Origin: a virus
IMG/VR virus record: IMGVR_UViG_3300045988_183062
Coordinates: 14,512-78,511 of that record
DNA length: 64,000 nt
Reading direction: 5' to 3' (one strand)
Part shown: in pieces, positions 4,602 through 62,885 of the stretch
How positions within the stretch are numbered: the stretch's first letter is position 1
Layout: the number at the start of each line of letters is the position of its first letter
Notes under the pieces: generated by a model
What the model saw: only the letters and a program-made list of their open reading frames with translations
What the model was told of the DNA's origin: nothing
Databases searched by the model: none
Position numbers and translations under genes: made by a program

Positions 4602-6769
4602 CCAAATGGAACGAACTGAAGGTGAAGTTCTCTCTTCTTTCTAAAGAGGAGAAACTGGTCATCTTGTTCTGCTGCTCGTTTGTTGTTTCTCTTATCCCGG
4701 CGGGATTCATTGCGGCGGTATTTGCCGGAGAATGGGATGCGGGATTTTTCCGTAAGCTGTTTCTTAGCATTACAACCGGATATGGCATTATCTCGACTTT
4801 GATTTTCACTGCTGCCATTACATTTGTCATCGTGCTTCTTTCTCGGAAAAATACGGACCTCAACTCGGCAAAAGAAGTTGATGACCGTGGCATGATTACC
4901 TCCAATGCTGGTACTTACGGAACAGCAGAGTGGATGTCAGAGGACGAAGCCAAAAAGGTTTATGAGGTTGGCCCTGTTGAAGATGTGACGGGTACAATTC
5001 TTGGTCAGTTTACGACCGATGGCGAAGAAGTCATTGCTTTGCCGTATGAACCGACTGGCAACCGCAACCTTATCCTTATCGGACCTCCGGGCTCTGGCAA
5101 GTCGTTTGGCTATGTTCGTACTGCTGTGTTCCAGTCTATCGTACGCGGTGAGTCTGTAGTCGTTACTGACCCGAAGGGTGAAATTCACAATGATATGCGG
5201 AAATTACTCGAAGCAAACGGCTATAAGGTAAAGGTATTCAACCTCATCAACCTTGACCTTTCCAATGCCTGGGACTGCGTACAGGAAATCTATGACCCCA
5301 TTACGGGCAACATTGACGACCAGCGTGTTATTGCGTTCTGTAAGACCGTTATTGCCAATACAGGCGGTGGTGCAAACAGCAAGGGCGACCCGTTCTGGGA
5401 GAGTTCGGAAGAAAACTTGTTCCGTGTAGCCGTTTCTTACTGCGCCTATATGCGTGAGACGACCCTTATCAAAATCTATGAGCGCCGCACCAAAGAACTT
5501 CTTACGCAGCTGCCGTTCATTTCGGAAGAAGATGGCAAGGCACTGGTCGAAGCTGTTACAAATCCTGAATCTGCGATGGTGGACCGTCGCCGTGTTGTCG
5601 AGTACCTTGCCAAGAATCTCTATGGCGAGGAAGAAGGAGAGAAGAAGCTGCTGGCTTGGGAGGAAGACGCACCGACCAGCAACATTTCCGACATCTACAA
5701 CGCTCTGATGCACAATGACCTGAACTCTTGGGAAGAAAACTTCAAGAGCGTACCTATGAATCCCCCCGCCGCGTCTGCCTGGGCTGTATTCAAAGGCATG
5801 GGCGAGCGCGTACAGCCTAACATTGTCGGTGGCCTGAACACTCGTTTGCAGTTGTTTATGACCTTTAAGGTTCGCCGCGTTATCAGTAACGATGACATCC
5901 GCCTGGCAGACATTGGCGCTGAAAAGACCGCTCTGTTCCTGATTATCTCGGACGATAACGCATCCATGCAGCTGCTTTCTTCTCTGCTTCTGAGCTTCCT
6001 GTTTAAGGACCTGAAAGAGGCATTCGATGCCGTTGGCGGCGATGGTCGTATCCCTGTAAACGTCATTGCGGACGAGCTGGCAAATACCGGTGTCTGGCCC
6101 AACTTCGAGAAGACGATTGCTACCGCTCGTTCTCGCAAGATTGCAGTTTCCCTTATCTTGCAGAGCTTGCCGCAGTTGACGCAGTTGTATGGCGAGGAAA
6201 ACGCCGAAACCATCATTGGCTGCTGCAACACCATGCTTGTGCTGGGGTGCAACGATAAGTATACGGCCGAGTACATCTCCGACAAGAGCGGCATCGTTAC
6301 GATTCGTGCCAAGAGCGTGAGCGATTCCAGAGCAAATTCCGTTGGTTATCGCGGCGCTATGCAGGGATATTCTCTCAGTGAAGGCGATGGTAAACGCAAC
6401 TTGATGAACCCCGATGAAGTTCAGCACCTTGGCAAAGAAGAGATTCTGATTATGACAAACGGTCAGAACCTGCTGAAAGCCAAGCGCTTTGGCTTTATCC
6501 ATCATCCGCTGTTCTCCGACCCGCACTTTGTTCCGACACGCTGGTCCGAACTGCCTAAGACGGTTGACCTTTATCCCGATGCTCGTAAGCATGATGCTCT
6601 GGAGTCGCTGGTAGGTGACATCCAGCGCCAAAAGGAAGTCAATACGGAAATTGCGCAGAGACGTTCGGAAGTGCGTATGAATCCTCGTATGAGAAAGAGC
6701 GACCTTATCGGAAACGATAAAGTTCCTTCCAAGAAGAACGCTTTTGCAGACAAAGCTAAAAAGAAATAA
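4598..6769 (+). CDS. Type IV coupling protein, TraG/VirD4/TcpA-like ATPase
   Basis: N-terminal TM helices; Walker A LIGPPGSGKSF; Walker B-like hhhhDE (VIADELAN); size and context between T4SS genes. Confidence 0.8.
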   Translation: MTKWNELKVKFSLLSKEEKLVILFCCSFVVSLIPAGFIAAVFAGEWDAGFFRKLFLSITTGYGIISTLIFTAAITFVIVLLSRKNTDLNSAKEVDDRGMITSNAGTYGTAEWMSEDEAKKVYEVGPVEDVTGTILGQFTTDGEEVIALPYEPTGNRNLILIGPPGSGKSFGYVRTAVFQSIVRGESVVVTDPKGEIHNDMRKLLEANGYKVKVFNLINLDLSNAWDCVQEIYDPITGNIDDQRVIAFCKTVIANTGGGANSKGDPFWESSEENLFRVAVSYCAYMRETTLIKIYERRTKELLTQLPFISEEDGKALVEAVTNPESAMVDRRRVVEYLAKNLYGEEEGEKKLLAWEEDAPTSNISDIYNALMHNDLNSWEENFKSVPMNPPAASAWAVFKGMGERVQPNIVGGLNTRLQLFMTFKVRRVISNDDIRLADIGAEKTALFLIISDDNASMQLLSSLLLSFLFKDLKEAFDAVGGDGRIPVNVIADELANTGVWPNFEKTIATARSRKIAVSLILQSLPQLTQLYGEENAETIIGCCNTMLVLGCNDKYTAEYISDKSGIVTIRAKSVSDSRANSVGYRGAMQGYSLSEGDGKRNLMNPDEVQHLGKEEILIMTNGQNLLKAKRFGFIHHPLFSDPHFVPTRWSELPKTVDLYPDARKHDALESLVGDIQRQKEVNTEIAQRRSEVRMNPRMRKSDLIGNDKVPSKKNAFADKAKKK

Positions 6770-6815: not shown

Positions 6816-6951
6816 TCCCCGATTCAGCAATGAGTCGGGAACTACGCACATCGACAGCCTCCGCGCGGCGCGTAGTGGTTAGTGCCCGTATCCTGCTATC
6901 GGGCAGCGAATGTCGATAACATACTACATCCCTACAAAGGAGACCAATACC

Positions 6952-8112
6952 ATGAACGAGAACGAAATGCTGAACCCCACCACCGTCGAAACCGACGAGG
7001 TGACCACCCCTGTTGCCCCTGCGGAGGAGGCTATGGAAAACGCTCAGAGCGTTGCTCCTGTTGCCGAGCCTGCTGAGGAAAAAGACTCCGTCGAGGCCGT
7101 TCCTGCCCCGGCTAACGACGTAGAGGACGAGGACGATGTCCCTGAAGCTCCCCGCGCTTCCCGCCGTTTCAATGACGACGATTTGCAGATTGGTGCCTTC
7201 ATTGACGATGGCAACGATATGCTGAAAGTCGATATGCCTGAAGACCGCCGCGCCCGTGACCTCGCTGAGATGCGCCGCTGCGTGGCTGACAACAAGCGCA
7301 GCCCTCGCCGCTTCCTGCAGGGTAAGGTCTTCGGTGTCCGTCCTGTTGGCAACGGCAGCGCGGTCGTCGAAGTCACCCGTGGTACGCTGCGCGTGATGAT
7401 TCAGGCTGAGGACTTCTTCCACTTCTCTCAGATGAAGGGCATCGAGAACGATGATGAAGCTACTCGTCAGCGCCGCTTCCTGCGCAAAGCTAAGCTGATG
7501 AATGGTGCTATCATCAACTTCTGCCCCTATCTGGAAGCCGAGTCTGAGGACGGCGAAGTTGTCTTCGCAGGCTCCCGCCAGGACGCCATGCAGCTCCAGC
7601 GCAATCGTCATTTCTTCGGCCGCAACGCCGATGTCAAGGAAGGCACCCGCGCTGCTGCATCTATCCTGTCTACCGGCCCTGATTACGTCATTGCTGAGGC
7701 TCTGGGCGTTGAGACCAGCATTGGTGCTGCTGCCCTGTCTGCTTACGAGTACATCGACAACGTGGCCGACAAGTTCCATGTTGGTGAAGGCATTCCCGTG
7801 GTCATCGAAGACCTGAACGTGGATGCTGAGAACGGCACTGTCAGCCTGCGTATGAACCGCGCTATCCTGGAGCGCCGTGCCAATCCTGCTATGAACATTC
7901 ATAGCCTGGCTCGTGGTGGCGCTTATGGTGCAACTGTTACATCTGTCAATGAGCGCTTCTACCGCCTCATTGTGGATGTCGGCAACATCCAGGCCCGCGT
8001 TGCACTGACTTCCTCTGATGAGCTGCTGACTCGTGGCGACCGCGTGACGCTGCTGGTCTACGGCTATGATGATAAGCGCAACTACGTCTGGGGCGCTTGC
8101 CACAAGGTCTAA
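6952..8112 (+). CDS. Acidic N-terminus protein with 2-3 S1/OB-like repeats (tentative), function unknown
   Basis: RBS AAGGAG upstream of ATG 6952; repeated G-x-V-x-G-x-V pattern reminiscent of S1 domains (GKVFGVRPVGNGSAVVEVTRG). Confidence 0.45.
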   Translation: MNENEMLNPTTVETDEVTTPVAPAEEAMENAQSVAPVAEPAEEKDSVEAVPAPANDVEDEDDVPEAPRASRRFNDDDLQIGAFIDDGNDMLKVDMPEDRRARDLAEMRRCVADNKRSPRRFLQGKVFGVRPVGNGSAVVEVTRGTLRVMIQAEDFFHFSQMKGIENDDEATRQRRFLRKAKLMNGAIINFCPYLEAESEDGEVVFAGSRQDAMQLQRNRHFFGRNADVKEGTRAAASILSTGPDYVIAEALGVETSIGAAALSAYEYIDNVADKFHVGEGIPVVIEDLNVDAENGTVSLRMNRAILERRANPAMNIHSLARGGAYGATVTSVNERFYRLIVDVGNIQARVALTSSDELLTRGDRVTLLVYGYDDKRNYVWGACHKV

Positions 8113-8251
8113 TTCTTACCGGCTGTCTACTGCTTACCCGGTTGACAGCCGGTTGCCATGCAAGATACCAGCCTTCGCGTGGCGCATGGTGAGCAACTGC
8201 TTAACCGCAGGCTGATGGTATCAGAATACAGATATTATGTGATAGGGGTGA

Positions 8252-9735: not shown

Positions 9736-12444
9736 ATGTTTAGAAAGAAAAACAAACAGCAAGCTGTTCCGAATGGCGTTGTTGGGGACAGCTTGGAAAG
9801 CGTTCGTCTGACAAAGAAAGAGCGTGAAGAGATTGCCAACGCCGAACGTAAGCGTATCGACAAAGAGATGCAAGCCAATGCAGACCGGTATCAAATCGTT
9901 CGCAGTACACAACGCATCATTCCTGTTCAAGATATTTATAACGGCGTAATCATTACTAAAGACCACCGTTATGTGAAGATTCTTGAGTTTCGACCCATCA
10001 ACTTCGGTTACATGGATGCCGAGACACAGAACCGCATCATCTCACTCTTCTATCAGACTTTCAAGGCTGTTCCGGTCAACATCCAGTTCAAGACCTTCGC
10101 CCGTAAAGCAGATGTAGAGAAGACGATTGCTACAGTCACTTCCTATTATCGGGAAGAGACAAACATCAAACGCAAGCGGATGCTGAAAGCTTATATTGGG
10201 TTGCTTCGCAAGACGGCATTGTCCGTTGGCATCACGCGCCGCTTCTTTATCATCATCGAGTTTCAGCGCACCATCAGCAATGATGGCTCTAACTTTAATA
10301 TGGTTGTGGCGGACCTGAACGCAATGGCTGCCAACGTACGTTCCCACATGGAACAGTGTGGGAACATCTTTATCCCGGCGCTTGGTGACAGCAGCCGCAA
10401 CGAAGATGCCGGTATACACCAGCTGTTCTATCAGATGCTGAACCGTCGCAAGAGTGAGACGATTACGTTCCACGACCACGTTACGCCCATCATTGAACGC
10501 TATACCGAAGCGGATAAGAACGGCGTAAAGACCTCTCTGAATGCCACGGAATTGATTGCGCCCGACTGGATTGATTTTACCCATTATGACTATATTGTCA
10601 TTGATGGAAAGTTCTACACCTTCGCCTATATCCCGTCCACCGGCTATAATCAGCGTGTCTATGCTGGTTGGATTGCCACCTTCGTCAACGCTGGCGAGGG
10701 CGTTGATATGGATGTTTTCTTCGAACATCAGTCACGGGAAGCAGTCTACAACAAAATCAGTACGCAGCTTCGTTTGAGCCGTGCCAATGCAATGGATAGC
10801 CATGATACCGACTCGGATTATCATGCCCGCATGGAAAAGATTTCTTCCAGTGAATACATGCTGAAAGGTCTCTCCAGCGGTGAGGAATTCTATTACATGA
10901 GTATTCTTATCACCGTTGTTGGTGATAGTTTGGATGAGCTGGAATACAAATACAATTCCCTTGAAAAGCGCGTTAAAGGCCAGGGCATGAAGATTCGCCG
11001 TGCGAACTTTATGATGGAAGAGTGCTTTGAGTCTGCATTGCTTCCTCTTGGTAAGCTCCATAAGGACATCAAGCGCCGGGCACAGCGCAACGTACTGACC
11101 TCTGGTGTAGCATCTTGCTATCCGTTCATTTCCTTTGAAATGCAGGACCCTGATGGCGTTATGATTGGTACAAACCGTGCCAACAACTCCCTTGTCACTA
11201 TCGACATGTTCGATACAGACGTTCACGCCAATGCAAACGCTGTTATCCTCGGCTCTTCCGGTTATGGCAAGACCTTTACCGCACAGCTCTTTGCATTGCG
11301 TCTGTCTGAGATGGATACGCAAGTATTCGTCATCTCTCCGCTGAAGGGCTTGGAAGACTATGGCGGCGGATGTAAGGCGGTTGACGGTCAGTTCATCAGT
11401 ATGGACCCGTCTTCCATCAATAGCATCAACATCATGGACATCCGCGTGCCGGACGATGCGGATGCTAAAGAACTGGATGACTACGAGTCTACTGGTTCTC
11501 TGCTTACAAAGAAAATTCACACCATCAAGTCCTTCTTGCACTTGGTCGTTAAGGATATGACGCAGGAAGAGGAACAGCTTATTGATACGAGTCTTTACAG
11601 ATGCTATAAGGACTTCGGCATCACCAATGATAACGAATCGATTCTCGATAAAGAACACGGCGGTTATAAAAAGATGCCTCTGCTGGAAGACCTCCAAAAA
11701 GAGATGCAGAATGTTCCTGAACTCCATCGCATCTGCAATATCCTGAACCCGCTGATTACAGGTTCTATGGCATGCTACAACCGTCCCACGAATGTTGACC
11801 TGAAAGCAAAATACATCGTGTTTGACTTCAATGGCATGAAAGGCGCAATCCTTACAATGTCGATGTTTGTTGTTCTTGACTTTGTCTGGACCAAAATTAA
11901 AGAGGACCGTACGAAGCGCAAGGCCGTATTTATCGACGAGTGCTGGAAGCTGATTGGCACCGACTCGAACGAAATGGCAGCAGAGGACGTTGTAGAAATC
12001 TTCCGTACGATTCGTGCTTACGGTGGTTCGGCTTTCGCTATGACGCAGGACATCTCTCAGTTCTACGAGTATAAAGGCGGCAAGTATGGTAAGGCAATCA
12101 TCGGTAATGCTGACACCAAAATCATCATGCACCTTATCCCGTCTGAAGCGCAGGCATTGCAGTCGGCCATTCAGTTGACTGATGCGGAGATGGAAAATGT
12201 CTCCAACCTGCAACGTGGTCAAGGTCTGGTCTGTGCCGCTTCCGCCAAGCTGTTCGTTGACTTTGTTGCCGCACCTTATGAAAAGCAGGAAATCACGACA
12301 GATGCAAAGAGCTTCTATTTGCAAGAGAAAGCCCTCAAAGAGAAGCAGCACAGAGAAGAACAGGAACGCCTGGCTGCTGAAAACGCCAAAGGGGGGTCCG
12401 ACTCTAATAGCAATGACGAGGATTTGCTGAATGTGACATTCTGA
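9736..12444 (+). CDS. VirB4/TraE/PrgJ/TcpF-family conjugative ATPase
   Basis: Walker A ILGSSGYGKTF, Walker B AVFIDECWK, ~900 aa, follows PrgI-like gene as in Tn916/pCF10 layouts. Confidence 0.85.
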   Translation: MFRKKNKQQAVPNGVVGDSLESVRLTKKEREEIANAERKRIDKEMQANADRYQIVRSTQRIIPVQDIYNGVIITKDHRYVKILEFRPINFGYMDAETQNRIISLFYQTFKAVPVNIQFKTFARKADVEKTIATVTSYYREETNIKRKRMLKAYIGLLRKTALSVGITRRFFIIIEFQRTISNDGSNFNMVVADLNAMAANVRSHMEQCGNIFIPALGDSSRNEDAGIHQLFYQMLNRRKSETITFHDHVTPIIERYTEADKNGVKTSLNATELIAPDWIDFTHYDYIVIDGKFYTFAYIPSTGYNQRVYAGWIATFVNAGEGVDMDVFFEHQSREAVYNKISTQLRLSRANAMDSHDTDSDYHARMEKISSSEYMLKGLSSGEEFYYMSILITVVGDSLDELEYKYNSLEKRVKGQGMKIRRANFMMEECFESALLPLGKLHKDIKRRAQRNVLTSGVASCYPFISFEMQDPDGVMIGTNRANNSLVTIDMFDTDVHANANAVILGSSGYGKTFTAQLFALRLSEMDTQVFVISPLKGLEDYGGGCKAVDGQFISMDPSSINSINIMDIRVPDDADAKELDDYESTGSLLTKKIHTIKSFLHLVVKDMTQEEEQLIDTSLYRCYKDFGITNDNESILDKEHGGYKKMPLLEDLQKEMQNVPELHRICNILNPLITGSMACYNRPTNVDLKAKYIVFDFNGMKGAILTMSMFVVLDFVWTKIKEDRTKRKAVFIDECWKLIGTDSNEMAAEDVVEIFRTIRAYGGSAFAMTQDISQFYEYKGGKYGKAIIGNADTKIIMHLIPSEAQALQSAIQLTDAEMENVSNLQRGQGLVCAASAKLFVDFVAAPYEKQEITTDAKSFYLQEKALKEKQHREEQERLAAENAKGGSDSNSNDEDLLNVTF

Positions 12445-15830: not shown

Positions 15831-15945
15831 GGCGATGAAAATAAAGAAGACGAAACACGGAAGGAGCGTAGCTGCCGAAGCGTAGCCGAAGAACTACAAA
15901 CCTCAAAGCGTAGCTCCTGACCGTAGGCACTTGAGGTTTTGAGAA

Positions 15946-16611
15946 ATGACTAAGAAGTTCATTGTTCCTTACGTAGTTGTATCGCTGGCAATGGCTGCTG
16001 CAATTAGCGTAGCCAGTAGTGATGGAGCCGTAGTTGCAAGAAGCTACTCTGGATACAACAACCAGAAGCCGAGCGTAGCTGCTGACTATACCTATCAAAC
16101 CGTAGGCATTCCCTGGAATAACACTTATGTTGAAGTGACTGCGACACAGGCGAGAGAAATCAAAGATGGCATCGTTATCTTTGCGTATCCTCGCTGCCCT
16201 TACTGCCGCAACCTGATTCCTGAACTTACCAGTATTGCCAAAGAAAAGAACCAGACCGTTTACTACTGCCAAATCGATGAGTACCGCGACATCTACGCAT
16301 ACGACGAGAATACTGGTGCTCCTGTGATGACAAAAGCAGCAGGGGAAGGGTATGATGAACTTCTCAATTGGCTGCAAGACTACCTGGCAGATTACACGAT
16401 AAGCGATAAGGATAAGAACAAGTACGAAATCGGAGAGAAGCGTATCGGCGCTCCTACCATTGTTCGCATCGAAGATGGTGAACCTGTTTCTACCTGGAAG
16501 CTAAGTTCGGTTGAAGATGTTTCGTACCCGGAGAACAAATACGACTCGTGGGATGATACTGTACGAGTTAAAGTCTCTGACTCGCTGAGAGACTACTTTG
16601 AGGAGGCATAA
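15946..16611 (+). CDS. Secreted thioredoxin-fold protein with CPYC active-site motif
   Basis: Signal-like N-terminus MTKKFIVPYVVVSLAMAAAISVASS; YPRCPYCRNLIPEL (CxxC). Confidence 0.65.
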   Translation: MTKKFIVPYVVVSLAMAAAISVASSDGAVVARSYSGYNNQKPSVAADYTYQTVGIPWNNTYVEVTATQAREIKDGIVIFAYPRCPYCRNLIPELTSIAKEKNQTVYYCQIDEYRDIYAYDENTGAPVMTKAAGEGYDELLNWLQDYLADYTISDKDKNKYEIGEKRIGAPTIVRIEDGEPVSTWKLSSVEDVSYPENKYDSWDDTVRVKVSDSLRDYFEEA

Positions 16612-16802: not shown

Positions 16803-16980
16803 AGCGTAGCCCGGCGGGTGAAACCGTAGGTGCGCGTGGAACGAACCGTAGGCAGAGGATGAAAGCATCGCTGCCAATAGCAAAGGAGCTTATGAACGAC
16901 GGAAGCGTAGCTGCCACCATGAAACTGGTTGCTGGTTGCGTAGCCGTCGTTCTTTTTCTTTTTAGGAGGCGTAACCAAAC

Positions 16981-30989: not shown

Positions 30990-31030
30990 TTGTGCATTCG
31001 TGCGAATTGCGTAGAATTAAAATTGTACAA
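30990..31030 (+). promoter_or_regulatory. Conserved-family promoter copy a (TTGTGC-16[..GTGCGAATTGCG]-TAGAAT)
   Basis: Member of 8-copy element family, see findings. Confidence 0.6.
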
Positions 31031-31261
31031 GCGGAATTGGGTTCCGGTGGGTCTTAACCTCTTCCTGCCGGTGTTTACGGTGTTGTTTTCTCTCACTCTT
31101 ACATGTTGTGTGGTCCGCTTGTATTCACCCCATCGGCTTTTTCCTGGGCCGGTGGTTCATATAAAAGGCTGTGGTTGCTTTTGCTTCCGCAGCTTTTTTG
31201 TTTGTATTCGCGCCTGCACAAAAGACAGGCATTGGTTGTGATGAGCGAAAGGAGTATGAAT

Positions 31262-32947
31262 ATGGCGCTTATCATCGGGATTGTAGCAGTCCTTATTATC
31301 ATCTTCGGCTTTCTGTGCTACAAGAAGGCCCCTCCGACGGAGGCTATCGTCGTGACCGGCTTTGGGTTGTCAAAGCCCAAAGTAGTATCCGGTAAAGGCA
31401 CGTTTGTGCTTCCTGTCTTGCAACGAGCAGACAAACTGAACATGCGGCTTCTGAAGATTGATGTCAAGACCCCGGAAACAGGCGTTAAGACTCAGAATGG
31501 TGTCAGCCTTTGGATTGATTCTGTTGTGACGATTCAGGTTTACAGTGAGAACTCCACTGTGTTGGACGATGAGGTCAAAGCATCTGGTCTGAAGGACGCC
31601 AAGGCGTATATCATGTCCCGCCAGCAGGCAGCTATCTCGAACTTCTTGGGCATGAACGAGCAGGGCATCAACGACAAGGTCAATGACGTTCTGCAGGGCA
31701 ACCTGCGTGAGATTGTCTCCGACATGACCGTTGACCAGATTCTGACAAACCGCAAGCAGATGGCACTGAGCGTCATTGAGAACGCTCGTCCAGACCTCGC
31801 CAAGATGGGCCTTGAGGTCGTGACCTTCAATGTTCAAGACATTAGGGACGCGATTGATGCACAGGGCCACAATCACGGTGTCATCGAAGCTATCGGCATC
31901 GAGCAGGAAGAACTGGTGAAGAAGCAGGCTGAGATTGCTCGTGCCCAGGCTGCTCGCGATGTGGCATGTGCCAAAGCAGATGCTGAGATGGCAGCGAACG
32001 CCAAGGAAGTTGAAGCCCAGACCGCTATCGCACAGCGCAACAACGAGTTGCAGCTTGCCAAGGCAAAGCTGAAGGCAGAAGCTGACAAGGCTGCGGCCGA
32101 CGCAGATGCTGCCGGTCGTATCCAGATGAACCTCCGTGCCAAGGAAATCAAAGAAGCTGAGGCTGACGCAGAGATTGCCAAGCAGAAAAAGATGGTTGAC
32201 CTTGCTGCGCAGGAAGCAGAAGTTCAGCAGCGTAAGTTGGACGCAGAAGTTCGTAAACAGGCTGATGCAGACCTGTACCGCCGTCAGAAAGAGGCGGAGG
32301 CCAAGAAGTACGAGGCTGAGCGTGCGGCCGAGGCTACCAAGTTCGCCAAGCAGCAGGAGGCAGAAGGCATCGAGATGGTCGGTAAAGCTGAGGCTGAAGC
32401 CATTCGCCAGAAAGGTCTGGCAGAGGCCGAAGCCATGAAACAGAAAGCCGAAGCCTACAAACAGTACAACGATGCGGCCGTGGCTGAAATGCTCATTAAG
32501 GTTCTGCCCGACATCGCCAAGAGCGTGGCTCAGCCGCTGTCCAGCATCGACAAGGTCTCCATCATCGGCGGCGATGCCTCCGGCGTATCCGGCGTTTCCG
32601 GTAACGTCCCGGTGCTCATGGCACAGACCATGCAGACGGTGAAGGAAGCCACCGGCATTGATATGGGCGAGATTGTTCGCGCCAATAGCATCCAGGCCAA
32701 GACGGACCGCAACATCCATATCGATGGTGTGGAGTTGGACGAGCCGAAAACTCACATCACCTCCGAGCGTGTCGAAGATGGTTGGATGTTCCATGAGAAG
32801 GACCCCATCACCGGTGAGGACAAAACTTCTTTCCGTCCCGATTTTACGGACGAGGAAAAGGCCATCATAGATGCTCACGCCAAGGCAGCTGAGAATCATG
32901 CTACCACCAACAAAACCAATCCGTATAAAAAGGGCTTCAATAAATAA
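31262..32947 (+). CDS. Flotillin/SPFH (band-7) domain membrane protein with long Ala/Glu/Lys-rich coiled coil
   Basis: RBS AAAGGAG before ATG 31262; N-terminal TM then SPFH-like core; EA-repeat coiled-coil typical of FloT/YuaG. Confidence 0.7.
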   Translation: MALIIGIVAVLIIIFGFLCYKKAPPTEAIVVTGFGLSKPKVVSGKGTFVLPVLQRADKLNMRLLKIDVKTPETGVKTQNGVSLWIDSVVTIQVYSENSTVLDDEVKASGLKDAKAYIMSRQQAAISNFLGMNEQGINDKVNDVLQGNLREIVSDMTVDQILTNRKQMALSVIENARPDLAKMGLEVVTFNVQDIRDAIDAQGHNHGVIEAIGIEQEELVKKQAEIARAQAARDVACAKADAEMAANAKEVEAQTAIAQRNNELQLAKAKLKAEADKAAADADAAGRIQMNLRAKEIKEAEADAEIAKQKKMVDLAAQEAEVQQRKLDAEVRKQADADLYRRQKEAEAKKYEAERAAEATKFAKQQEAEGIEMVGKAEAEAIRQKGLAEAEAMKQKAEAYKQYNDAAVAEMLIKVLPDIAKSVAQPLSSIDKVSIIGGDASGVSGVSGNVPVLMAQTMQTVKEATGIDMGEIVRANSIQAKTDRNIHIDGVELDEPKTHITSERVEDGWMFHEKDPITGEDKTSFRPDFTDEEKAIIDAHAKAAENHATTNKTNPYKKGFNK

Positions 32948-32989
32948 CTGAAGTTCTTTCACACAGTCCCTGCGGGGGCTGTTGCCGCT

Positions 32990-33030
32990 TTAAGAAGACA
33001 GCCTCCACGGGGCGAGCGGCGGGCAACGGG
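32990..33030 (+). repeat. GC-rich structured intergenic repeat, copy 1 (GCCTCCACGGGGCGAGCGGCGGGCAACGG)
   Basis: About 80% identical to 35530-35570; embedded in inverted-repeat hairpins, no T-run. Confidence 0.5.
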
Positions 33031-33080
33031 AAAGGCTCCTGGCGAATAGTCTTCAGAACGAAAAAGAAGGGGAGAAAGCC

Positions 33081-35501: not shown

Positions 35502-35529
35502 GCGGGGTTCTCCCCGCAGCTGCCTTTAC

Positions 35530-35570
35530 GCAAAGAGGCCTCCACGAGGCGGGCAGCGGGCAACAGCTAC
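35530..35570 (+). repeat. GC-rich structured intergenic repeat, copy 2 (GCCTCCACGAGGCGGGCAGCGGGCAACAG)
   Basis: See copy 1. Confidence 0.5.
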
Positions 35571-35644
35571 GGCTGGCAGACGACTTTGCACTCTAACAAT
35601 CTATCGGGAAACCGAAAACAAATAACATATTTTGGAGGATATTT

Positions 35645-47335: not shown

Positions 47336-47363
47336 TTGCGCAATTCTCAAAACATGCTATAAT
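47336..47363 (+). promoter_or_regulatory. Sigma70 promoter TTGCGC-16-TGcTATAAT followed by leader hairpin
   Basis: Consensus hexamers; hairpin cagcctcc..ggaggct + TTTTTATTTTT at 47390-47442 before RBS. Confidence 0.55.
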
Positions 47364-47455
47364 ACAGACATCACAACAGGTTCACAGCCTCCTATCGTAA
47401 TCAGTATCACACTGACTGCGGTGGGAGGCTTTTTATTTTTAGGAGGTAAAATACT

Positions 47456-48066: not shown

Positions 48067-48387
48067 ATGAATACTTGCACTCTGAAATTTGAAGCTACCG
48101 TATTCCGCAATGATGACGACAACAACCTCGAGAGTTTTTCGGCATCCATCAGCGTTCCCGTGGAGAACGATGACGAAGTGATTGGGAACATGCTGGGCGA
48201 TGAGAAGCTGATTGTTCATGCTGTTGCAGCACTGTACAACCTTATCAGCGACCTGCACCCCAACTGGCTGGACGGCGAGGATACCAGCCTGACGCTGGAT
48301 ATTTCCATCGACGGCAGCGAGGCCCAGTCACGCGGCGGTCTCGTCGCTATGAAAGGGAACGGCTTCACTTTCGACCTCGAAGATTAA
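48067..48387 (+). CDS. Small acidic protein, duplicated cassette copy 1
   Basis: RBS AAAGGAGA; ~45% identity to 48572-48899 protein. Confidence 0.55.
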   Translation: MNTCTLKFEATVFRNDDDNNLESFSASISVPVENDDEVIGNMLGDEKLIVHAVAALYNLISDLHPNWLDGEDTSLTLDISIDGSEAQSRGGLVAMKGNGFTFDLED

Positions 48388-48400
48388 GCTGAGACAATTC

Positions 48401-48439
48401 GGAGCCTTGCCTGCAGCAGCGGGTGAGGCTCCTTTTTTG
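48401..48439 (+). terminator. Terminator ggagcc..ggctcc + TTTTTTG
   Basis: Near-identical to terminator at 48912-48951. Confidence 0.7.
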
Positions 48440-48571
48440 TTGCGTAGCTGCTAAACGGATAAGAGAGCGTAGCTGCAAAAACCGTAGGCGCGACGGTTGA
48501 CGCGATATGCGAACCGCATACAATAATAAGTACCACAGGAAACCAATAACACATACAAAGGAGAATACCAC

Positions 48572-48899
48572 TATGAACACCAACCCAAACCTGATTGAGT
48601 TCAGCGCCACCGCTTTTCGTCCCAAGGATGACAACACCCTTGACAGCCTCACCGCTTCTATCAGCTTTCCCGCCGACAAGGAAAACGACGTGATTGCTCA
48701 GACTCTGGACGATGAGGACCTGGTTGCCTATGTCATTGGTGCGCTGCATGACCTCGTTGTTTACATGCGTCCCAACTGGCTGGACAACGAAGATTCCAGC
48801 CTGACTCTCGATGTCAGTCTGGACGGCGTAAAGTGCAAGTCTTGCGGCGGCCTGGTCACCATGACGCAGAAGGGCTACACCTTCGACGTGGAAGGCTAA
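48572..48899 (+). CDS. Small acidic protein, duplicated cassette copy 2
   Basis: Same RBS context (ccaataacacatacaaaggaga). Confidence 0.55.
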
Positions 48900-48911
48900 A
48901 CCGAACGAATG

Positions 48912-48951
48912 AGGAGTCTTGCCTGCAGAAGCGGGTGAGGCTCCTTTTTTC
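48912..48951 (+). terminator. Terminator ggagtc..ggctcc + TTTTTTC
   Basis: Hairpin + T-run. Confidence 0.7.
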
Positions 48952-49256
48952 TGCTGCATGGCCGCGATATGCAGTTGACACGATATGCGACCACCATATA
49001 CTAATAGATATTGAACAGCGCTGATAGTGTTGCTTCGGTAAAGACGAATAGGGTCTTGAGCGGACCTTAAACGCTCACTGCGAGAACGGCCTGCCTGCTG
49101 CTAACAGGCGGGTCTTTTCTTTTTATACGATGGCAAAGACTCTCTTTCAAAATGTGTACAGAAGATTAAAAACAAACTACTATCGTTGTATTTCGCCACA
49201 TTTACAGGTAAAATTATAGATAGAGAAAGCAAAAAAAGCACATTGCATCCACAAAA

Positions 49257-50855: not shown

Positions 50856-51068
50856 ATGTATAATACAAACTACAAATGTGTCAAGCCTCTGACATTATGG
50901 TACGATGGTCCAGATGGCAAAAAGAAACCGTACCGTGTCGAACGCGGGACCATCTGGCATCTGGTATGGTGCGGCGGGCAATATAGCTTCAAAGAATTTA
51001 CCGGACCGGACAAGATGCGTATGGAGCTGCCGGATGAATATGTTAGGGAATATTTTAAAAAGGTATAA
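50856..51068 (+). CDS. Small hypothetical protein
   Basis: RBS AAGGAG. Confidence 0.45.
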   Translation: MYNTNYKCVKPLTLWYDGPDGKKKPYRVERGTIWHLVWCGGQYSFKEFTGPDKMRMELPDEYVREYFKKV

Positions 51069-51162
51069 CAAGCATAAACTATATAAGATTAAAACGGCGA
51101 TTACGGAATAACAGTTAGTTCCGAAACGAATTGCAGCTTGAAAGACTGCGTAAGATTAAGAA

Positions 51163-51201
51163 CACCCCACCACTTGTTAAAGCGATGGGGGGGTTCTTTT
51201 T
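51163..51201 (+). terminator. Terminator ccccacc..gggggggt + TTCTTTTTG preceded by conserved GACTGCGTAAGATTAAGAACA box
   Basis: Hairpin + T-run. Confidence 0.65.
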
Positions 51202-52478: not shown

Positions 52479-53486
52479 GTGACAAACGCAGAATTTAAAG
52501 CAATCCTCCAGCGTGAAGAATACGATTTTTTACGTACCAACAAGCATCTGGGAGATAACATCCTGTTTTTGACCATCGGCGGCAGCCACGCCTACGGCAC
52601 GAATGTTGAGGGTTCAGATGTTGACATCCGTGGTGCAGCCGGTTCGCCTGAAATCTTGGGGGTTAACCGCTTTGAGCAGGTAATCAACAACCAGACGGAC
52701 ACCGTCATCTACGCCATCAATAAGTTCGTAAACTTACTTGTCCAATGCAATCCCAATGTCATCGAGCTTCTTGGCAATGACCTGGAGCTGTATGTGAACA
52801 TGACTCCTGAAGGGCAGATGCTGCTCGACAACAAAGAACTTTTCCTGTCCAAGCGCGTTGCATACAGCTATGGTGGCTTTGCGAACGACCAGCTCAGACG
52901 CTTGCAGATGGGGCTACTGCGGAACGGCGCTTCTCCTGAGCCGCTCAAAAACAAGTTTGAAAAGAGAAGCCTCGAACGACTGATTGCAGGTCAGGGTAAA
53001 GATGATGTCTTTGAAATCAGCATCAGTGAAGATGTCGATTCTGAAGGCAAACATCCTCTCTTGATTTCTGGAAATCTGAGTAACTATCCTGTCAACTCTC
53101 TCAAGTCCCTGCTTCGAGGTCTGACAACGACTATCGACCAGTATGAACAGCCGCAGCATCCGAAAGCGCAAAAGGATGCTGCCCATATCAATAAGCACGC
53201 CATGCACCTTGTGAGACTGTATTACACAGCATTTGACATTCTGGAGCAAGGACGCATCATCACCCGCCGGGACAAGGAGCACGAAGAACTGCTGGCTATC
53301 CGCAACGGCAAGTATATGCGTGAGGATGGGTCGTATGCACCCGAATTCTTCGAGTCTGTGGACCAGCTCGAAACGAAATTCCAGCGTGACGTGAAGAAAA
53401 CTGAACTCCCGACAAAACCCGATTTTGCGAAAATCGAGGAGTTGCTCGTAGAAATCAACAAATCCTATCTGCATCGAATTATGTAA
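52479..53486 (+). CDS. Pol-beta-superfamily nucleotidyltransferase (GS-x9-DxD), cGAS/DncV-like or minimal NTase class undetermined
   Basis: GGSHAYGTNVEGSDVDIRG motif; GTG start with RBS AAGGAAGTGA. Confidence 0.6.
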   Translation: MTNAEFKAILQREEYDFLRTNKHLGDNILFLTIGGSHAYGTNVEGSDVDIRGAAGSPEILGVNRFEQVINNQTDTVIYAINKFVNLLVQCNPNVIELLGNDLELYVNMTPEGQMLLDNKELFLSKRVAYSYGGFANDQLRRLQMGLLRNGASPEPLKNKFEKRSLERLIAGQGKDDVFEISISEDVDSEGKHPLLISGNLSNYPVNSLKSLLRGLTTTIDQYEQPQHPKAQKDAAHINKHAMHLVRLYYTAFDILEQGRIITRRDKEHEELLAIRNGKYMREDGSYAPEFFESVDQLETKFQRDVKKTELPTKPDFAKIEELLVEINKSYLHRIM

Positions 53487-53765
53487 AACCGCAAAGAGAT
53501 GCGGTGATAGCAAACAAAAATAACGTAGAACCAATAGTGGCAGAATATACAATGCTGAATATATGCAAAATTCTTTGTTATGTAATTTTGCCGTAGCAGC
53601 CCGTGTGACTGCGTAAGATTGAAACGAGGACGGTATCGACTACATGTCGTCCGAAAGCATCGTAGCAGCCCATGTGGCTGCGTAAGGTTGAACGTCCATC
53701 CGTAAATCACGGGTGGGCGTTATTTTTGTACCCGCAAAACTCAAAACAAAATACGATAAAAAGTG

Positions 53766-53815
53766 CTTGACCATCTGTGCGAATTGCCTACAATTGATAT
53801 TGTAAGATAAATAAT
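53766..53815 (+). promoter_or_regulatory. Conserved-family promoter copy f (TTGACC-16[..GTGCGAATTGCC]-TACAAT) followed by leader terminator hairpin 53822-53862
   Basis: See findings. Confidence 0.65.
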
Positions 53816-53893
53816 TGTACCCCGGTAGAACGCTTTACGTGTTTGCCGGGGTATTCTTTTTGTGTTGATACGTATTCTTGGAGGATTCAAACC

Positions 53894-56722
53894 ATGACTC
53901 TCGCTAACCTGTCTACTGAGCAACAGGACCTTGTACGCCTGGCTCTCGCAGGCAGAAATATACTCTGTGACGCTTGCATCGGCAGCGGTAAAACATCGAC
54001 CATCAACGTGTTGTGTAACGAGTTTGATGCCTCCAAACAGATTCTGTATCTGACCTATAACCGTCTGCTAAAACTTGATGCACAGGAGAAAATCCTGAAC
54101 GATAACGTCACCGTGCAGAACTACCACGGCTATGCTTCTAAACTCCTCTATCGACACGGAATCCGTAACATCGGACAGGGCGAACAAATTAAAAAAGCGC
54201 TCGACTTGCATGTCCCGGTCGGTCGCTATGACGTGCTCATCATCGATGAGTACCAAGATATTAACGAAGAAATCTCACGTTTGCTTGAATACATCAAGGA
54301 AGAAAACCCCACCATGCAAATTATTGCGGTGGGGGATATGGCGCAGAAAATCTACGACACCACGTCCTTGGACATTTGGAAATTCATCCACGGTTTCCTT
54401 GGCGCACACACGCAGGTCAATTTCACACAATGTTTCCGTCTATCCCACAACTTGGCCGAGCGACTTGGCACTATCTGGAATAAGGAAATCAATGGTGTAA
54501 ATGAGAACTGCGAAGTCAAGTCCATGACGAAAGACGAGGTTATCGAGTACCTGAACGACTTGGACCCCAAGAATGTCCTTTGCCTTGGCGCTCGTACCGG
54601 CCAGATGGCCGCAGTTTTGAATGCCTTGGAAGAGCGCCCCGATAATCTTTACGACAAAAAACATGTTTATGCCAGCATCAAAGACAACGACGGCGAAAAA
54701 AGCGTGGCTCCGAACAGCAATGTGGGCATCTTCACGACATTCGATGGCAGCAAGGGCATGGAGCGCCCTATCTGCGTAGTCTTTGATTTTACCGAGGATT
54801 ACTGGGCGACCCGTATGCGCCAGCCTCTGACTCGCTACGAAATCATGCGCAACCTCTTTTGCGTAGCTGCGAGCCGTGGCAAGCAGGAGGTCATCTTCGT
54901 CAAACCCGATAAGCGTAGCCTCGTGAGCGACAAGACACTAATGACCCCTGTCAAGACTCGCACCACCTTTAAGGACAAATTCGACATCAGTGAAATGTTC
55001 GATTTCAAGTTCGATGAAGATGTGGATGCGTGCTACAACCTTATCACGGCCAAGCAGGTATTCCAACAAGACCAGACGGAAATCGAAATCAAGCACTCCG
55101 ATGCGATGATTGACCTGTCTCCCTGCATTGGCATCTACCAGCAGGCAAACTTCTTCGATTTTTACGACATCGACAGCGCCATCGCCTTCTTCATGTACCT
55201 ACACAAGGACAAGATGGCGAAGGTTCCAACCACTTGGAAGTCAGTTGAGCAAAAAGTTCTGTTTCTTACAATGCTGATGACGAGCCAGGACCGTTATATC
55301 AAGCAGGTAGAACTGCCTTTCATCACGCCGGAGCAGGCTAAAGCACTGACCGACCGTCTTTCTACTATGTTCACGCATGACGAAGAGGTTCAGGAACGCG
55401 CCGAGTTGAAACTTGTTGTGGAGCAGGATGAATTGAAACAGCCTGTCACTTCTCTTATCGTCAGTGGCATGGCCGATGTAGTCAAAGATAATAAAGTTTA
55501 TTGCCTTAAATTTGTGTCGAACCTCGCGCACAAGCATTTCATCCAGTGCGCCTGCTATATGCTCGCTACAGGCCTGCCTACCGGTGTACTTTGGAACATT
55601 CGGGATAACACGATGTATGAAGTCGAAATTCCGGACCGCACGGCGTTTTTGAACGCAGTGGTGAAGTGTATCACAAAGGGCGTCTATACGGAAGCTCTCT
55701 CCTACAATCTGGAGAAAGACTACTCCCAAAGCCTCGATACGATTCTTGACCGAGTTATGTCCGACACTTCGCTGCCTGAATTTGATACCGGCGGCAACAT
55801 TGTAGAGGAAACGCCGCAGGACGAAGGTGTTGCTATTATCAAGCAGGGTGAGCAGTATGTCATCCTGGATGCCGGAACCCGCTCTATCGTGGATGGCACA
55901 GCAGTAAACGGCTACGACACGATTCTGGCCGCCTGCGAAGCATACGTAAAGCAGAACAAGAAAGCCACGGAGGAATCGGTGAACAAAAAAGAACTTCTCC
56001 ATATCATCGAACAGTGGCTTGATGACCATGCAGAGTTTGAGCATCAGATGTCTTGCGTGGCAGTCGATATTGAGAACCATGTCGGCCCGTATTCAGGCTA
56101 TTCAACCTTCTCTACCTATGTAGTTCGCAAGATGCTCAAAGACTGCGGCTTGGTCATCGACTTCAACGAACGTCAGCTTCTCAAGGTCTGGAAAGTCCGC
56201 GAGAAGAAGCGCCCGAAGCCTGTCACCCAGTACAGCACGGCTCAAGCCCCGAAACAGGTAGTTTTGAATCCAGCTGACAGCTTTGAGCAGATGCTGAACA
56301 GCTTGCAGAGCATGGGCGTGGATGTCAAAGTCGCGGAAGAGACCGCAACGGAACCTTACGACTTCTCCCAGTACAAGCGTTTGCCGCCGGAGCGTAAGAC
56401 GTATGATTCTGAGCCCGTCGGCTGGTGGAAGGATGGGGAAGAGCAGTATAAAAAAGAGAAAGAAGCTCTTCCGGCCGACTATCGAGTTATTCGCTCCTCT
56501 AAGCTGTCTAAACCCGGTGATGTACGCTACGTTATCATGGAAGAGGATTCCAACACTGTGCTGGACGACGCAAACGGGTATGGGTACAAATCCGTTCAGG
56601 CTGCGCACAAGGGCTATGGCTATAAGCGGCGCAACGGTGGCAGTTTTGGTTCCAAGAAGAAAGAAAAGAGTGAAGCAAAGCCTCAGACCACGGGCGAGCA
56701 GCTTTCGTTTGGAGGTCTGTGA
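53894..56722 (+). CDS. UvrD/PcrA-like superfamily-1 DNA helicase with long C-terminal extension
   Basis: Motif I CIGSGKTST, motif II VLIIDEYQDI; RBS GGAGGA. Confidence 0.75.
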   Translation: MTLANLSTEQQDLVRLALAGRNILCDACIGSGKTSTINVLCNEFDASKQILYLTYNRLLKLDAQEKILNDNVTVQNYHGYASKLLYRHGIRNIGQGEQIKKALDLHVPVGRYDVLIIDEYQDINEEISRLLEYIKEENPTMQIIAVGDMAQKIYDTTSLDIWKFIHGFLGAHTQVNFTQCFRLSHNLAERLGTIWNKEINGVNENCEVKSMTKDEVIEYLNDLDPKNVLCLGARTGQMAAVLNALEERPDNLYDKKHVYASIKDNDGEKSVAPNSNVGIFTTFDGSKGMERPICVVFDFTEDYWATRMRQPLTRYEIMRNLFCVAASRGKQEVIFVKPDKRSLVSDKTLMTPVKTRTTFKDKFDISEMFDFKFDEDVDACYNLITAKQVFQQDQTEIEIKHSDAMIDLSPCIGIYQQANFFDFYDIDSAIAFFMYLHKDKMAKVPTTWKSVEQKVLFLTMLMTSQDRYIKQVELPFITPEQAKALTDRLSTMFTHDEEVQERAELKLVVEQDELKQPVTSLIVSGMADVVKDNKVYCLKFVSNLAHKHFIQCACYMLATGLPTGVLWNIRDNTMYEVEIPDRTAFLNAVVKCITKGVYTEALSYNLEKDYSQSLDTILDRVMSDTSLPEFDTGGNIVEETPQDEGVAIIKQGEQYVILDAGTRSIVDGTAVNGYDTILAACEAYVKQNKKATEESVNKKELLHIIEQWLDDHAEFEHQMSCVAVDIENHVGPYSGYSTFSTYVVRKMLKDCGLVIDFNERQLLKVWKVREKKRPKPVTQYSTAQAPKQVVLNPADSFEQMLNSLQSMGVDVKVAEETATEPYDFSQYKRLPPERKTYDSEPVGWWKDGEEQYKKEKEALPADYRVIRSSKLSKPGDVRYVIMEEDSNTVLDDANGYGYKSVQAAHKGYGYKRRNGGSFGSKKKEKSEAKPQTTGEQLSFGGL

Positions 56723-57342
56723 TGGGAAATAGCGATACTAAGATGAAGCCAAGACATAACGGCGTCCATGAATCCTTGAAAGAACGTAATGACGCGATTT
56801 ACCGAGATTATATGGATGGCGTGTGTGTCGTGGATTTGGCCGATAAATATGGCGTGTCTGGCTATAGGATTGTACAAATCCTTCGTTCAGACTCTGAATA
56901 CGGCTTGGAAAAGACACGCCTTAACTGGCAAAGAAACACACAGGCAAAGCGTGCCAGAAACAAGGAAATCTACGAAGATTACATAAATGGTGTGCCCTAT
57001 AATACCATCGCCGAAAAGTGGGGCATGACCAGCAGCGGCATTCAGGCAATCGCGAAGAAGTACCAAAAAGACCTCGAAATCAACTTCGAGAGAACCGTTC
57101 GCTCTGCACCCAAAACAAAGAAATCCGAAATCGATTGGGCCGAGAGGAAAAGACGATTGATTGCCCAAGCCAGAGCTATTCCAAATCAGTCTCTATCGAA
57201 TCTTGCCAAGCAATATGGATTAACGCCAAATGAAGCAAGAAAAATTTTAAGAGAAGCGGGTATTATCAAGTGCCCGCGCAACGACTTGAGTGATGAAGCT
57301 CTTTGGGCCGGAATCGGAGGCAGCTATGACGACATCTATTGA
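56719..57342 (+). CDS. DNA-binding protein with three tandem HTH (sigma-70 region-4-like) repeats
   Basis: Three ~45-aa repeats (IYRDYMDGVCVVDLADKYGVS..; IYEDYINGVPYNTIAEKWGMT..; SLSNLAKQYGLTPNEARKIL). Confidence 0.55.
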   Translation: MMGNSDTKMKPRHNGVHESLKERNDAIYRDYMDGVCVVDLADKYGVSGYRIVQILRSDSEYGLEKTRLNWQRNTQAKRARNKEIYEDYINGVPYNTIAEKWGMTSSGIQAIAKKYQKDLEINFERTVRSAPKTKKSEIDWAERKRRLIAQARAIPNQSLSNLAKQYGLTPNEARKILREAGIIKCPRNDLSDEALWAGIGGSYDDIY

Positions 57343-61239: not shown

Positions 61240-61300
61240 TTGCCATTCCTTTCGAATTGACTACAATATTGATTGTACGATAGATACCAAACACATAAAG
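61240..61300 (+). promoter_or_regulatory. Conserved-family promoter copy h (TTGCCA-16[..CGAATTGAC]-TACAAT) with leader hairpin 61337-61376
   Basis: See findings. Confidence 0.55.
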
Positions 61301-61398
61301 ATGTTACGATTTTCTATCGTTCACAATCTGTTTTAAGAGCGGACTTATCCCATTCCGGGGTAGGCCCGCTCTTTTTTATTTGAAAGGAGAAATTTCCA

Positions 61399-62728: not shown

Positions 62729-62790
62729 TTGTCAAAATATGCGAATTGCGTAAGATAAAAGTGTACGATAGATAACATTATCGAAAAGGC
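62729..62790 (+). promoter_or_regulatory. Conserved-family promoter copy g (TTGTCA-16[..TGCGAATTGCG]-TAAGAT) with leader hairpin 62828-62866
   Basis: See findings. Confidence 0.6.
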
Positions 62791-62885
62791 GTCTTGCCCT
62801 TCGTATTCACAATTTCGCTTGAAGAGCGGACTTCCCACGCGGGAGGCCCGCTCTTTTTGTGTCAAAACAAAGGAGTGTATTTACC

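Follow-up and report, generated by a model that had tools for sequence, protein, structure and literature searches.

Leader attenuators and repeated regulatory sequences ahead of establishment genes are established features of Gram-positive conjugative plasmids (PMC13401043, PMC8708921). In the zipper attenuator cATT of pLS20-family conjugation operons, a leader terminator close to the promoter competes with an anti-terminator that cannot form at the same time; no effector is known for it, and an RNA-binding factor recruited through a conserved segment is suspected. Only one cATT is present, preceding the conjugation operon and the conAn1 gene, and its long central stem is extended by complementary flanks, with the anti-terminator as the default (PMC13401043). 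The EGeRS1 and EGeRS2 elements of pLS20 and p576 are conserved regulatory sequences repeated upstream of variable establishment operons (including anti-restriction and single-stranded DNA (ssDNA)-related genes); EGeRS2 combines a strong sigma-A promoter with operators, of which one follows directly after the start site, and EGeRS1 (420-750 bp) is structured, has no constitutive promoter and blocks read-through (PMC8708921). Here we analyze a 64,000-nucleotide (nt) stretch of DNA, hereafter the window, corresponding to positions 14,512 to 78,511 of the IMG/VR virus record IMGVR_UViG_3300045988_183062. The window is part of a conjugative element, and two of its gene leaders, designated g and h, belong to a large RNA family whose members probably gate, in an on/off manner, genes with which the element establishes itself in a new host. 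An earlier reading of the same letters, the original prediction, had proposed conditional read-through of leader terminators as the general regulatory logic of this gene island.

The promoters concerned have the form TTG-N8-(T)TGCGA-N6-TAnnnT, usually with TTGTA at the start site, and are repeated on the + strand only (Table 1, where letters or start positions identify them). They share a conserved TGCGA(ATTG) box between -35 and -10, whose role may be that of an operator, of an activator site or of a Q-binding-like element; a stricter version of the pattern has 8 matches in the window versus 0.62 expected. With terminators defined as a hairpin of dG <= -17 kcal/mol followed by a U-run, 18 sites were found on the + strand versus 3 on the - strand, and six leaders contain one (f, g, h, b, 48975 and 47336). 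In all six a GC-rich hairpin is followed by a U-rich tract on the transcribed strand, with energies of -20 to -30 kcal/mol and at least five U in the next 8 nt. Fold z-scores of these leaders run from -3.8 to -7, and none of 60 dinucleotide shuffles of each leader gave such a terminator, except for b (6/60). The hairpins are predicted intrinsic terminators and they are strand-specific. Calculated folds bore out the GC-rich hairpins and U-runs originally placed between promoter and ribosome-binding site (RBS) at f, g and h, and the same feature behind the promoter at 47336 (-30.1 kcal/mol, z -7.0), and revealed two leader terminators that had been overlooked, those of b and 48975. A terminator proposed for the leader of a thioredoxin-like gene did not hold up, as the hairpin there is weak (-13.2 kcal/mol, z -1.55), is followed by four U's and overlaps the RBS. 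A candidate in the leader of promoter d was likewise discarded (z +0.32, no real hairpin).

Leaders g and h share near-identical terminator bases, as first noticed, and their upper stems differ through compensating changes; the whole leaders fold with -35.8 kcal/mol (z -3.8) and -36.7 kcal/mol (z -6.8), respectively. Both are recognized by a covariance model of the family (R1), which found only these two copies in the window. The family is absent from Rfam 15: searches at gathering thresholds and at E <= 5 returned no credible family over any leader or box, and a match of L20_leader to 61292-61383 in the h leader is at chance level (23.1 bits against a threshold of 58.7 bits, E 3.7). The 5' motif common to g and h, the 16-mer TGTACGATAGATANCA, recurs in at least 118 IMG/VR stretches, where as many as six copies share a strand within 13 kb, and 172 of its 181 unique contexts end in a hairpin and T-run 80-110 nt downstream, the remainder being chance coding matches, truncations or an insertion. 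A TGCGR box and -10 element lie at a fixed distance, 5-6 nt upstream, in 124 of the 131 leaders that were parsed. R1 gave 167 matches at E < 1e-3 in 100 loci, and altogether the family, about 100 nt long, counts at least 170 distinct copies in human-gut metagenome contigs.

An alignment of 64 representatives below 90% identity showed two structured parts joined by a conserved unpaired linker, (A)AUUCACAAU. In the 5' domain, a closing helix encloses one or two hairpins. Its 5' segment is invariant and always paired, with a register that varies among members: UGUACG pairs with a distal CGUACA together with UAGA/UCUA, or CGAU(A) pairs with (U)AUCG, and in h a single continuous helix is formed by ACGAUAGA and UCUAUCGU. 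The variable enclosed hairpin clearly covaries, the inner hairpin P2 changes register between subtypes at fixed sequence, and diverged members found with R1 carry compensatory changes in this domain (UGUAUG/CAUACG and UGGAU/AUCCA). The transcript start falls within the conserved motif UGUACGAUAGAUAnCA. The 3' part is the terminator, which was recovered by RNAalifold with compensatory changes in 8 of 12 pairs (e.g., GC 35 / AU 27). Since many pairs in these helices are G-U, the structure is selected on the transcript strand.

Between linker and terminator lies a segment, X (UYYGY), complementary to the first five bases of the terminator 5' arm, Y (GCRGA). X was placed by a rule blind to the terminator, as the five bases surrounding the first G that follows the linker motif by 3 nt or more. 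Placed in this way, it pairs with Y at all five positions in 49 of 59 representatives and in none when slid by 1-3 nt in either direction; counted by alignment cell, 94.9% are paired versus 19-58% after sliding. The middle pair is CG in 26, UA in 22, UG in 9 and CA in 2, double changes occur in 2 of the 5 pairs, and the covariation score was reached by 0 of 500 shuffles. When the nascent RNA is folded to minimum energy, 55 of 61 representatives contain the X-Y hairpin. It is mutually exclusive with the basal terminator stem, which gives the g/h family the two alternative helices of an attenuator. X rivals only the basal 5-7 bp beside the U-run, which an unpaired column separates from the upper stem in the RNAalifold consensus, and X-Y is worth about -5 kcal/mol versus about -22 kcal/mol for the whole terminator.

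Several other pairings were considered for these segments and set aside. Pairing of X with the GCG/GCA that follows the U-run was no better than slid controls, and pairing of X with the TGCGA of the promoter box in read-through transcripts was rejected by eye, the box remaining TGCGA whatever the sequence of X. An ssDNA promoter of the Frpo type was rejected by inspection, with no inverted repeat across the -35/-10 region and no complementary partner for it in the flanks; the many G-U pairs of the helices, which indicate selection on the mRNA-sense strand, also speak against it. No leader peptide was seen, and the window holds no antisense or complementary partner to the conserved leader segments.

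The position of the terminators is that of an attenuator, between a promoter and the first gene with no other promoter in between. In about 90% of the g/h copies an RBS and open reading frame (ORF) follow within about 10-60 nt of the U-run without an intervening promoter, and the downstream genes therefore need read-through. These genes fall into 51 protein clusters, mostly without a Pfam family, and many of the products are small and acidic, such as the 110-aa acidic protein behind leader g, which has no family match; among the clusters with one are SSB, N6 DNA methylase, MBL hydrolase, YopX and NT5C. Such a content is that expected of establishment or leading-region cargo (PMC11541004, PMC8708921). 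We infer that it fits establishment, leading-region or anti-defence cargo, and the SSB, the methylase and the many small proteins point to an establishment regulon.

A scan of IMG/VR with the promoter-plus-start pattern identified at least 119 stretches with several different leader types. Some of these run straight to the RBS, and at least three unrelated types carry a hairpin and U-run just before it. Given that several unrelated leader types in relatives carry them, leader terminators are a recurrent feature behind the TGCGA-box promoter family, and this recurrence behind one promoter family supports attenuation as a general logic. Two further features of the relatives may be recorded here. 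In L001, L016, L082 and L119 (related loci are numbered with the prefix L) a leaderless family promoter drives an ORF starting LNITSSYQVRIVNC that, judged from its sequence by eye, seems TnpB/OrfB-like. In L036, L046, L057, L071, L089 and L132 a structured GC-rich insertion (GTCAACAACCCCGCCTAAACCGGTTC...) is found right after the RBS-proximal start of the leader or within the g/h leader; it could represent a mobile intron or some other RNA that has inserted there.

Among 185,579 species-representative genomes the promoter-plus-leader pattern was present in only two, both Clostridiales metagenome-assembled genomes, with 13 matches on one 224-kb contig. It is common on gut-metagenome contigs that are 30-390 kb long and classed as viral; related loci were found on DYBQ01000001.1 (224 kb), DYBQ01000017.1 and QAMJ01000006.1 (L239-L249) and also on contigs of IMG/VR sample 3300045988. 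This near-absence from reference genomes, together with the frequency in gut metagenomes, suggests a poorly catalogued lineage of large conjugative elements common in gut metagenomes. Annotated plasmid and phage collections contain no near-identical relative of the window.

Compared with the systems described above, the g/h module appears, by analogy, to work like the functions of cATT and EGeRS combined. Both cATT and g/h have a leader terminator near the promoter and an exclusive anti-terminator, but the g/h leaders are about 100 nt long, stand in many copies ahead of cargo and establishment genes, and favor the terminator, with a separate 5-7 bp hairpin beside it. The long central zipper stem of cATT is not found in them, as X, placed between 5' domain and terminator, forms a small hairpin of its own and the 5' flank shows no complementarity to the terminator. 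From EGeRS they differ in showing no sequence similarity and in joining boxed promoter and short terminator/anti-terminator leader in one unit. Similar to the RAT sites of BglG, LicT and SacY, a small imperfect hairpin overlaps the 5' side of the leader terminator and would need stabilizing for read-through, and the site is conserved over several operons. However, the g/h leaders have no RAT consensus and an extra structured 5' domain, and scans of the window gave no CAT_RBD/PRD match (the protein could be encoded elsewhere). The conAn system of pLS20 and canT of Tn916 also belong to conjugative elements of Firmicutes with long same-strand gene arrays punctuated by terminators. In those systems a single RNA of 260-600 nt (conAn2 or canT) acts on downstream terminators, in contrast to the leaders described here, each of which has its own terminator with a local competitor. 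The protein partner of the bipartite conAn system was not detected either, with no PF17362 match at E <= 0.01 in the scanned window ORFs, although the start of the operon may lie outside the window. The module thus lacks the defining features of the zipper attenuator, conAn and RAT/LicT, and it has no Rfam match.

The reading we favor, and to which we give roughly an even chance on the sequences in hand, is factor-dependent attenuation at g and h within a regulon sharing the boxed promoter. The hairpins would be promoter-proximal intrinsic terminators gating separate transcription units. With X paired to Y, the basal stem beside the U-run would be blocked and polymerase would read into the gene; with X and Y unpaired, the terminator would form and an RNA of about 100 nt would be released. 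Because X-Y is weak, termination would be the default and a trans-acting factor would stabilize the anti-terminator. Such a factor, more likely a protein than a metabolite, may bind the conserved linker and the hairpin. The establishment and anti-defence leaders and the shared TGCGA-box promoter would then make up a two-layer regulon, as gene content suggests. The proposal of conditional read-through as island logic is in this way strengthened at g and h, with their covarying terminator and exclusive X-Y helix, but not at f, which has no alternative structure. The A/U-rich upstream leader of f has no segment able to compete with the stem, and f is therefore a plain leader terminator; like b, 48975 and 47336, it is probably a leaky or a co-regulated gate.

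A number of observations weigh against factor-dependent attenuation. The X-Y helix has only 5 bp with real covariation at two positions, much of this covariation could trace to two lineages (the GCGGA and GCAGA classes), and in the shuffle control the number of further pair types was not above chance. Conservation of the 16-mer is partly built in, as the copies were collected with it, and the 5' motif could equally serve at the DNA level, as an operator directly behind the start site, by analogy with EGeRS2 of p576; the motif is also present in f and d without the RNA fold. A few copies (L043, L057, L074) lead to another promoter rather than to a gene. Leaders f, b, 48975 and 47336 have no alternative, anti-terminator fold. 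Finally, no effector was found among the window ORFs scanned. The antiterminator gene that the original prediction suggested looking for on the element did not appear: the Pfam scans gave no match to NusG/KOW, ConAn1 (PF17362), CAT_RBD, ANTAR or Q-type families, and PHROGs scans of ten window ORFs gave no anti-terminator family either. The sole leads are a Mor-like triple helix-turn-helix (HTH) protein, described below, and a sub-threshold S1 match (ORF 6910-8112, E 0.008).

The strongest competitor, which we nevertheless regard as rather unlikely, is processive anti-termination. Here the terminators would be unconditional stops, ignored only by polymerase modified at or near the promoter, either by a Q-like protein on the TGCGA box that engages polymerase paused at a -10-like element (TACGAT / TAAGAT) at the very start of the transcript or by conAn/canT-like loading further upstream. 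In lambda PR'-qut-tR', a box lies between -35 and -10 and is followed by a conserved early region and a downstream terminator. The boxed promoters with leader terminators parallel this layout, with the box, an early conserved region and a terminator ~100-190 nt on, and they resemble lambdoid Q systems generally in having an element between -35 and -10, a conserved early transcribed sequence, a terminator at a comparable distance (100-200 nt downstream in those systems) and, as predicted, a short RNA by default. The box and the TTGTA start are moreover kept in all promoter copies, whichever leader type follows, and the 18 strong terminators on the coding strand would suit a modified polymerase. 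Processive systems are known in conjugative elements (PMC8191782, PMC11658703), and multi-HTH proteins resembling late transcriptional activators are encoded behind such leaders. However, this account gives the covarying local X-Y helix, which the Q mechanism lacks, no role. The many promoters are also unlike lambdoid Q, the scanned window ORFs have no Q, NusG/KOW or ConAn1 match, the pause element is a resemblance only, and no leader terminator follows five of the promoters that have the box (a, c, 42080, 47992 and 48497).

Somewhat less probable still is that the leaders are unregulated dampers or insulators, that is, leaky terminators which fix a low expression and block read-through between cassettes, with X-Y only tuning their efficiency. 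The four leaders without an alternative fold (f, b, 48975 and 47336) are in keeping with this, as are the terminators that also stand ahead of almost every promoter, and EGeRS1 of pLS20 is a precedent for a sequence that blocks read-through with no known switch (PMC8708921). Dampers would, however, leave unexplained the avoidance of C-A at the middle X-Y pair and the linker and 5' domain conserved in more than 170 g/h copies whose inner hairpins vary.

A metabolite or ion riboswitch, in which the 5' three-way junction would serve as aptamer and a ligand would decide between X-Y and terminator, is improbable. It would account for the architecture, in which a junction domain with conserved nucleotides in loop and linker precedes a terminator/anti-terminator platform, but Rfam 15 gave no match even at E <= 5, the register shifts of P2 are unusual for an aptamer, dozens of unrelated cargo genes share the leader and no structural link could be established between the junction and X. 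That each promoter-to-terminator unit (about 60-125 nt) is an independent small RNA acting in trans, its downstream gene incidental, is very improbable, since despite the completeness of the units and the few copies that lead to another promoter, about 90% have an RBS and ORF close behind with no promoter in between and the window offers no complementary target for the conserved segments.

A bolder form of factor-dependent attenuation, which we put forward as speculative, is that the g/h leader represents a class of signal-responsive RNA switches, copied ahead of dozens of establishment and anti-defence genes in poorly sampled large conjugative elements of gut Clostridiales, with an effector that reports the state of the element (newly arrived versus resident). 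If true, entry-triggered transient expression would be set at transcription elongation, instead of or beside repressor control. The timing of establishment and anti-defence functions has been well studied only in a few Proteobacterial plasmids (ssDNA promoters) and in Bacillus plasmids (EGeRS), and in uncultured gut Firmicutes a compact module of promoter and RNA switch appears to serve this role many times per element. The module is short and highly recurrent and makes a clear mutational prediction (X-Y against the terminator), and it can serve as a sequence tag for the cargo and establishment regulons of this lineage and for their regulator.

Table 1. Promoters, leaders and associated features located in the window (positions in nt from the first letter of the window).
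Feature	Position	Strand	Details
Family promoter copies	29986 (a), 30990 (b), 38131 (c), 42080, 42777 (d), 47992, 48497, 48975, 53767 (f), 61240 (h), 62729 (g)	+	
Thioredoxin-like gene leader hairpin	15893-15948	+	Weak, sequesters RBS; unconvincing as terminator; two CGUAG motifs in loop
Promoter b	30990-31017	+	TGCGA-box family
b leader	31023-31199	+	Long closing helix (UUGUACAAGCGGA/UCCGCUUGUAUUCAC) round branched domain, second hairpin, terminator 31163-31199
47336 promoter and leader	47336-47440	+	TTGCGC ... TATAAT, without TGCGA box; hairpin 47386-47430 and U-run directly ahead of RBS
48975 promoter and leader	48975-49125	+	TGCGA-box promoter 48975-49002; ~120 nt of structured leader, with terminator 49082-49119 at its end
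Box copy 3	51133-51163	+	Precedes terminator 51158-51198; 3' of gene 50856-51068
Box copies 1, 2	53593-53625, 53662-53693	+	Followed by terminator 53691-53721; downstream of gene 52479-53486, upstream of promoter f
Promoter f	53767-53794	+	TTGACC-N8-TGCGAATTG-CC-TACAAT; TGCGA-box family
f transcript start	53801-53814	+	TGTAAGATAAATAA; resembles conserved 5' motif of g/h family, TGTACGATAGATAA
f leader hairpin and U-run	53817-53862	+	Hairpin 53817-53854, then UCUUUUU; -23.9 kcal/mol, z -4.6
f RBS (GGAGG) and ATG (53894)	53879-53896	+	UvrD-like helicase gene, then regulator gene 56719-57342
Triple-HTH Mor-like regulator gene	56719-57342	+	Overlaps stop codon of f-operon helicase gene
Promoter h	61240-61267	+	TTGCCA ... 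TTCGAATTG ... TACAAT
h leader RNA	61272-61379	+	R1 64.5 bits, E 3e-9; long 5' hairpin (ACGAUAGA/UCUAUCGU), linker UUCACAAU, anti-terminator strand, terminator
h segment X (anti-terminator 5' strand)	61327-61331	+	UCUGU
h segment Y	61339-61343	+	GCGGA; common to anti-terminator and terminator base
h terminator	61335-61373	+	-25 kcal/mol, then U6 (to 61379); RBS 61383, ATG 61399, MBL-fold lipoprotein
Promoter g	62729-62756	+	TTGTCA-N8-TGCGAATTG-CG-TAAGAT
g leader RNA	62760-62861	+	R1 80.1 bits, E 6e-12; P1 (GUACG/CGUAU), two inner hairpins, linker UUCACAAU, anti-terminator, terminator
g segment X (anti-terminator 5' strand)	62814-62818	+	UUCGC
g segment Y	62826-62830	+	GCGGA; common to anti-terminator and terminator
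g terminator	62821-62856	+	-25 kcal/mol, then U5 (to 62861); RBS 62869, ATG 62886

Leader f was also considered as a diverged member of the g/h family, and this was rejected with the covariance model (R1 10.6 bits, E 8). True orthologues of the f leader were recovered only in L072 and L313, in which the hairpin is retained despite several substitutions; the AT-rich search pattern for f-type leaders gave mostly chance matches. In the b transcription unit, the SPFH/flotillin-like gene listed at 31103-32947 has its true start at ATG 31262 with an RBS at 31248, the listed start at 31103 falling inside the structured leader. The b-type leaders of relatives carry two tandem terminators.

A conserved box, GACTGCGTAAGATT, had also been put forward as the possible binding site of an RNA-binding antiterminator. 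With CGTAGCAGCC upstream of it, the box is present in three copies in the window (51133, 53593 and 53662); the pattern search returned 2 matches versus 0.03 expected, plus the third, diverged copy. A tandem pair does exist, but with a period of 69 bp rather than 40 bp, and all copies do precede terminator hairpins, although each copy lies between the stop codon of the upstream gene and its 3'-end terminator and not in a promoter-proximal leader. The proposed function fared less well. No member of the g/h family has the box, which lies upstream of 3'-end terminators and whose stem is not kept in relatives. Among the sequences searched it is confined to the window and two close relatives: L072 is the only IMG/VR match, L313 has two diverged copies with a broken stem and other hits are chance coding matches. 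The CGTAGC half of the box resembles AAGCGTAGCTGC, a DNA direct repeat just ahead of -35 elements, and for this reason a role of the box as an anti-terminator site in RNA is unlikely.

In relatives, a set of three AAGCGTAGCTGC repeats directly precedes the -35 of family promoters. Within the window, the motif AGCGTAGC occurs 12 times versus 1.95 expected, with clusters at 15865-15914, 16803-16945 and 48442-48490, and this motif or CCGTAGG is also found at 14027, 15729, 16006 and 16072. On the + strand, 13 of 24 [GC]CGTAG[GC] sites are intergenic, compared to 13.5% of the window. Two motif copies lie inside the loop of an RBS-proximal hairpin at both 15893-15948 and 16895-16950. These sequence patterns make it likely that the CGTAGC motif is bound as DNA by a transcription factor rather than acting in RNA as an anti-terminator site. 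The triple DNA repeats or the promoter box could be bound by the product of ORF 56719-57342, a candidate with three HTH repeats of the Mor/C-like 'late transcriptional activator' type (residues ~20-59, 77-118 and 149-183). Multi-HTH proteins that look similar by eye are encoded in relatives behind their own promoter and leader terminator.

Nearly all genes of the window are on the + strand. Conjugation genes identified with Pfam encode a VirD4-type coupling protein (4598-6769), a VirB4/TraG-like ATPase (9736-12444) and an M23 peptidase; most of the genes in the roughly 50 kb that come after them could not be annotated. The cargo recognizable by Pfam comprises an ImpB/UmuC polymerase, NADAR, a YpsA-SLOG protein, metallophosphatases, a nucleotidyltransferase, the UvrD-like helicase, a sortase and an MBL hydrolase.

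Five candidate HDV-like ribozymes were observed on the + strand (32984-33055, 35519-35587, 8155-8222, 6841-6917 and 1322-1400), each positioned between genes and close ahead of the following ORF, across the conjugation and cargo array. One of the five exceeds the Rfam threshold, as HDV-F-prausnitzii (47 bits); the other four are sub-threshold at 33-38 bits, with E 0.002-0.03 for three and 0.5 for 1322-1400. Repeated self-cleaving ribozymes may process a long polycistronic transcript. Furthermore, two small and apparently paralogous genes lie in tandem at 48067-48387 and 48573-48899, each with its own family promoter. Their terminators (48401-48432 and 48911-48946) are near-identical (GGAGCCTTGCCTGCAG.AGCGGGTGAGGCTCC), and the pair looks like a recent cassette duplication.

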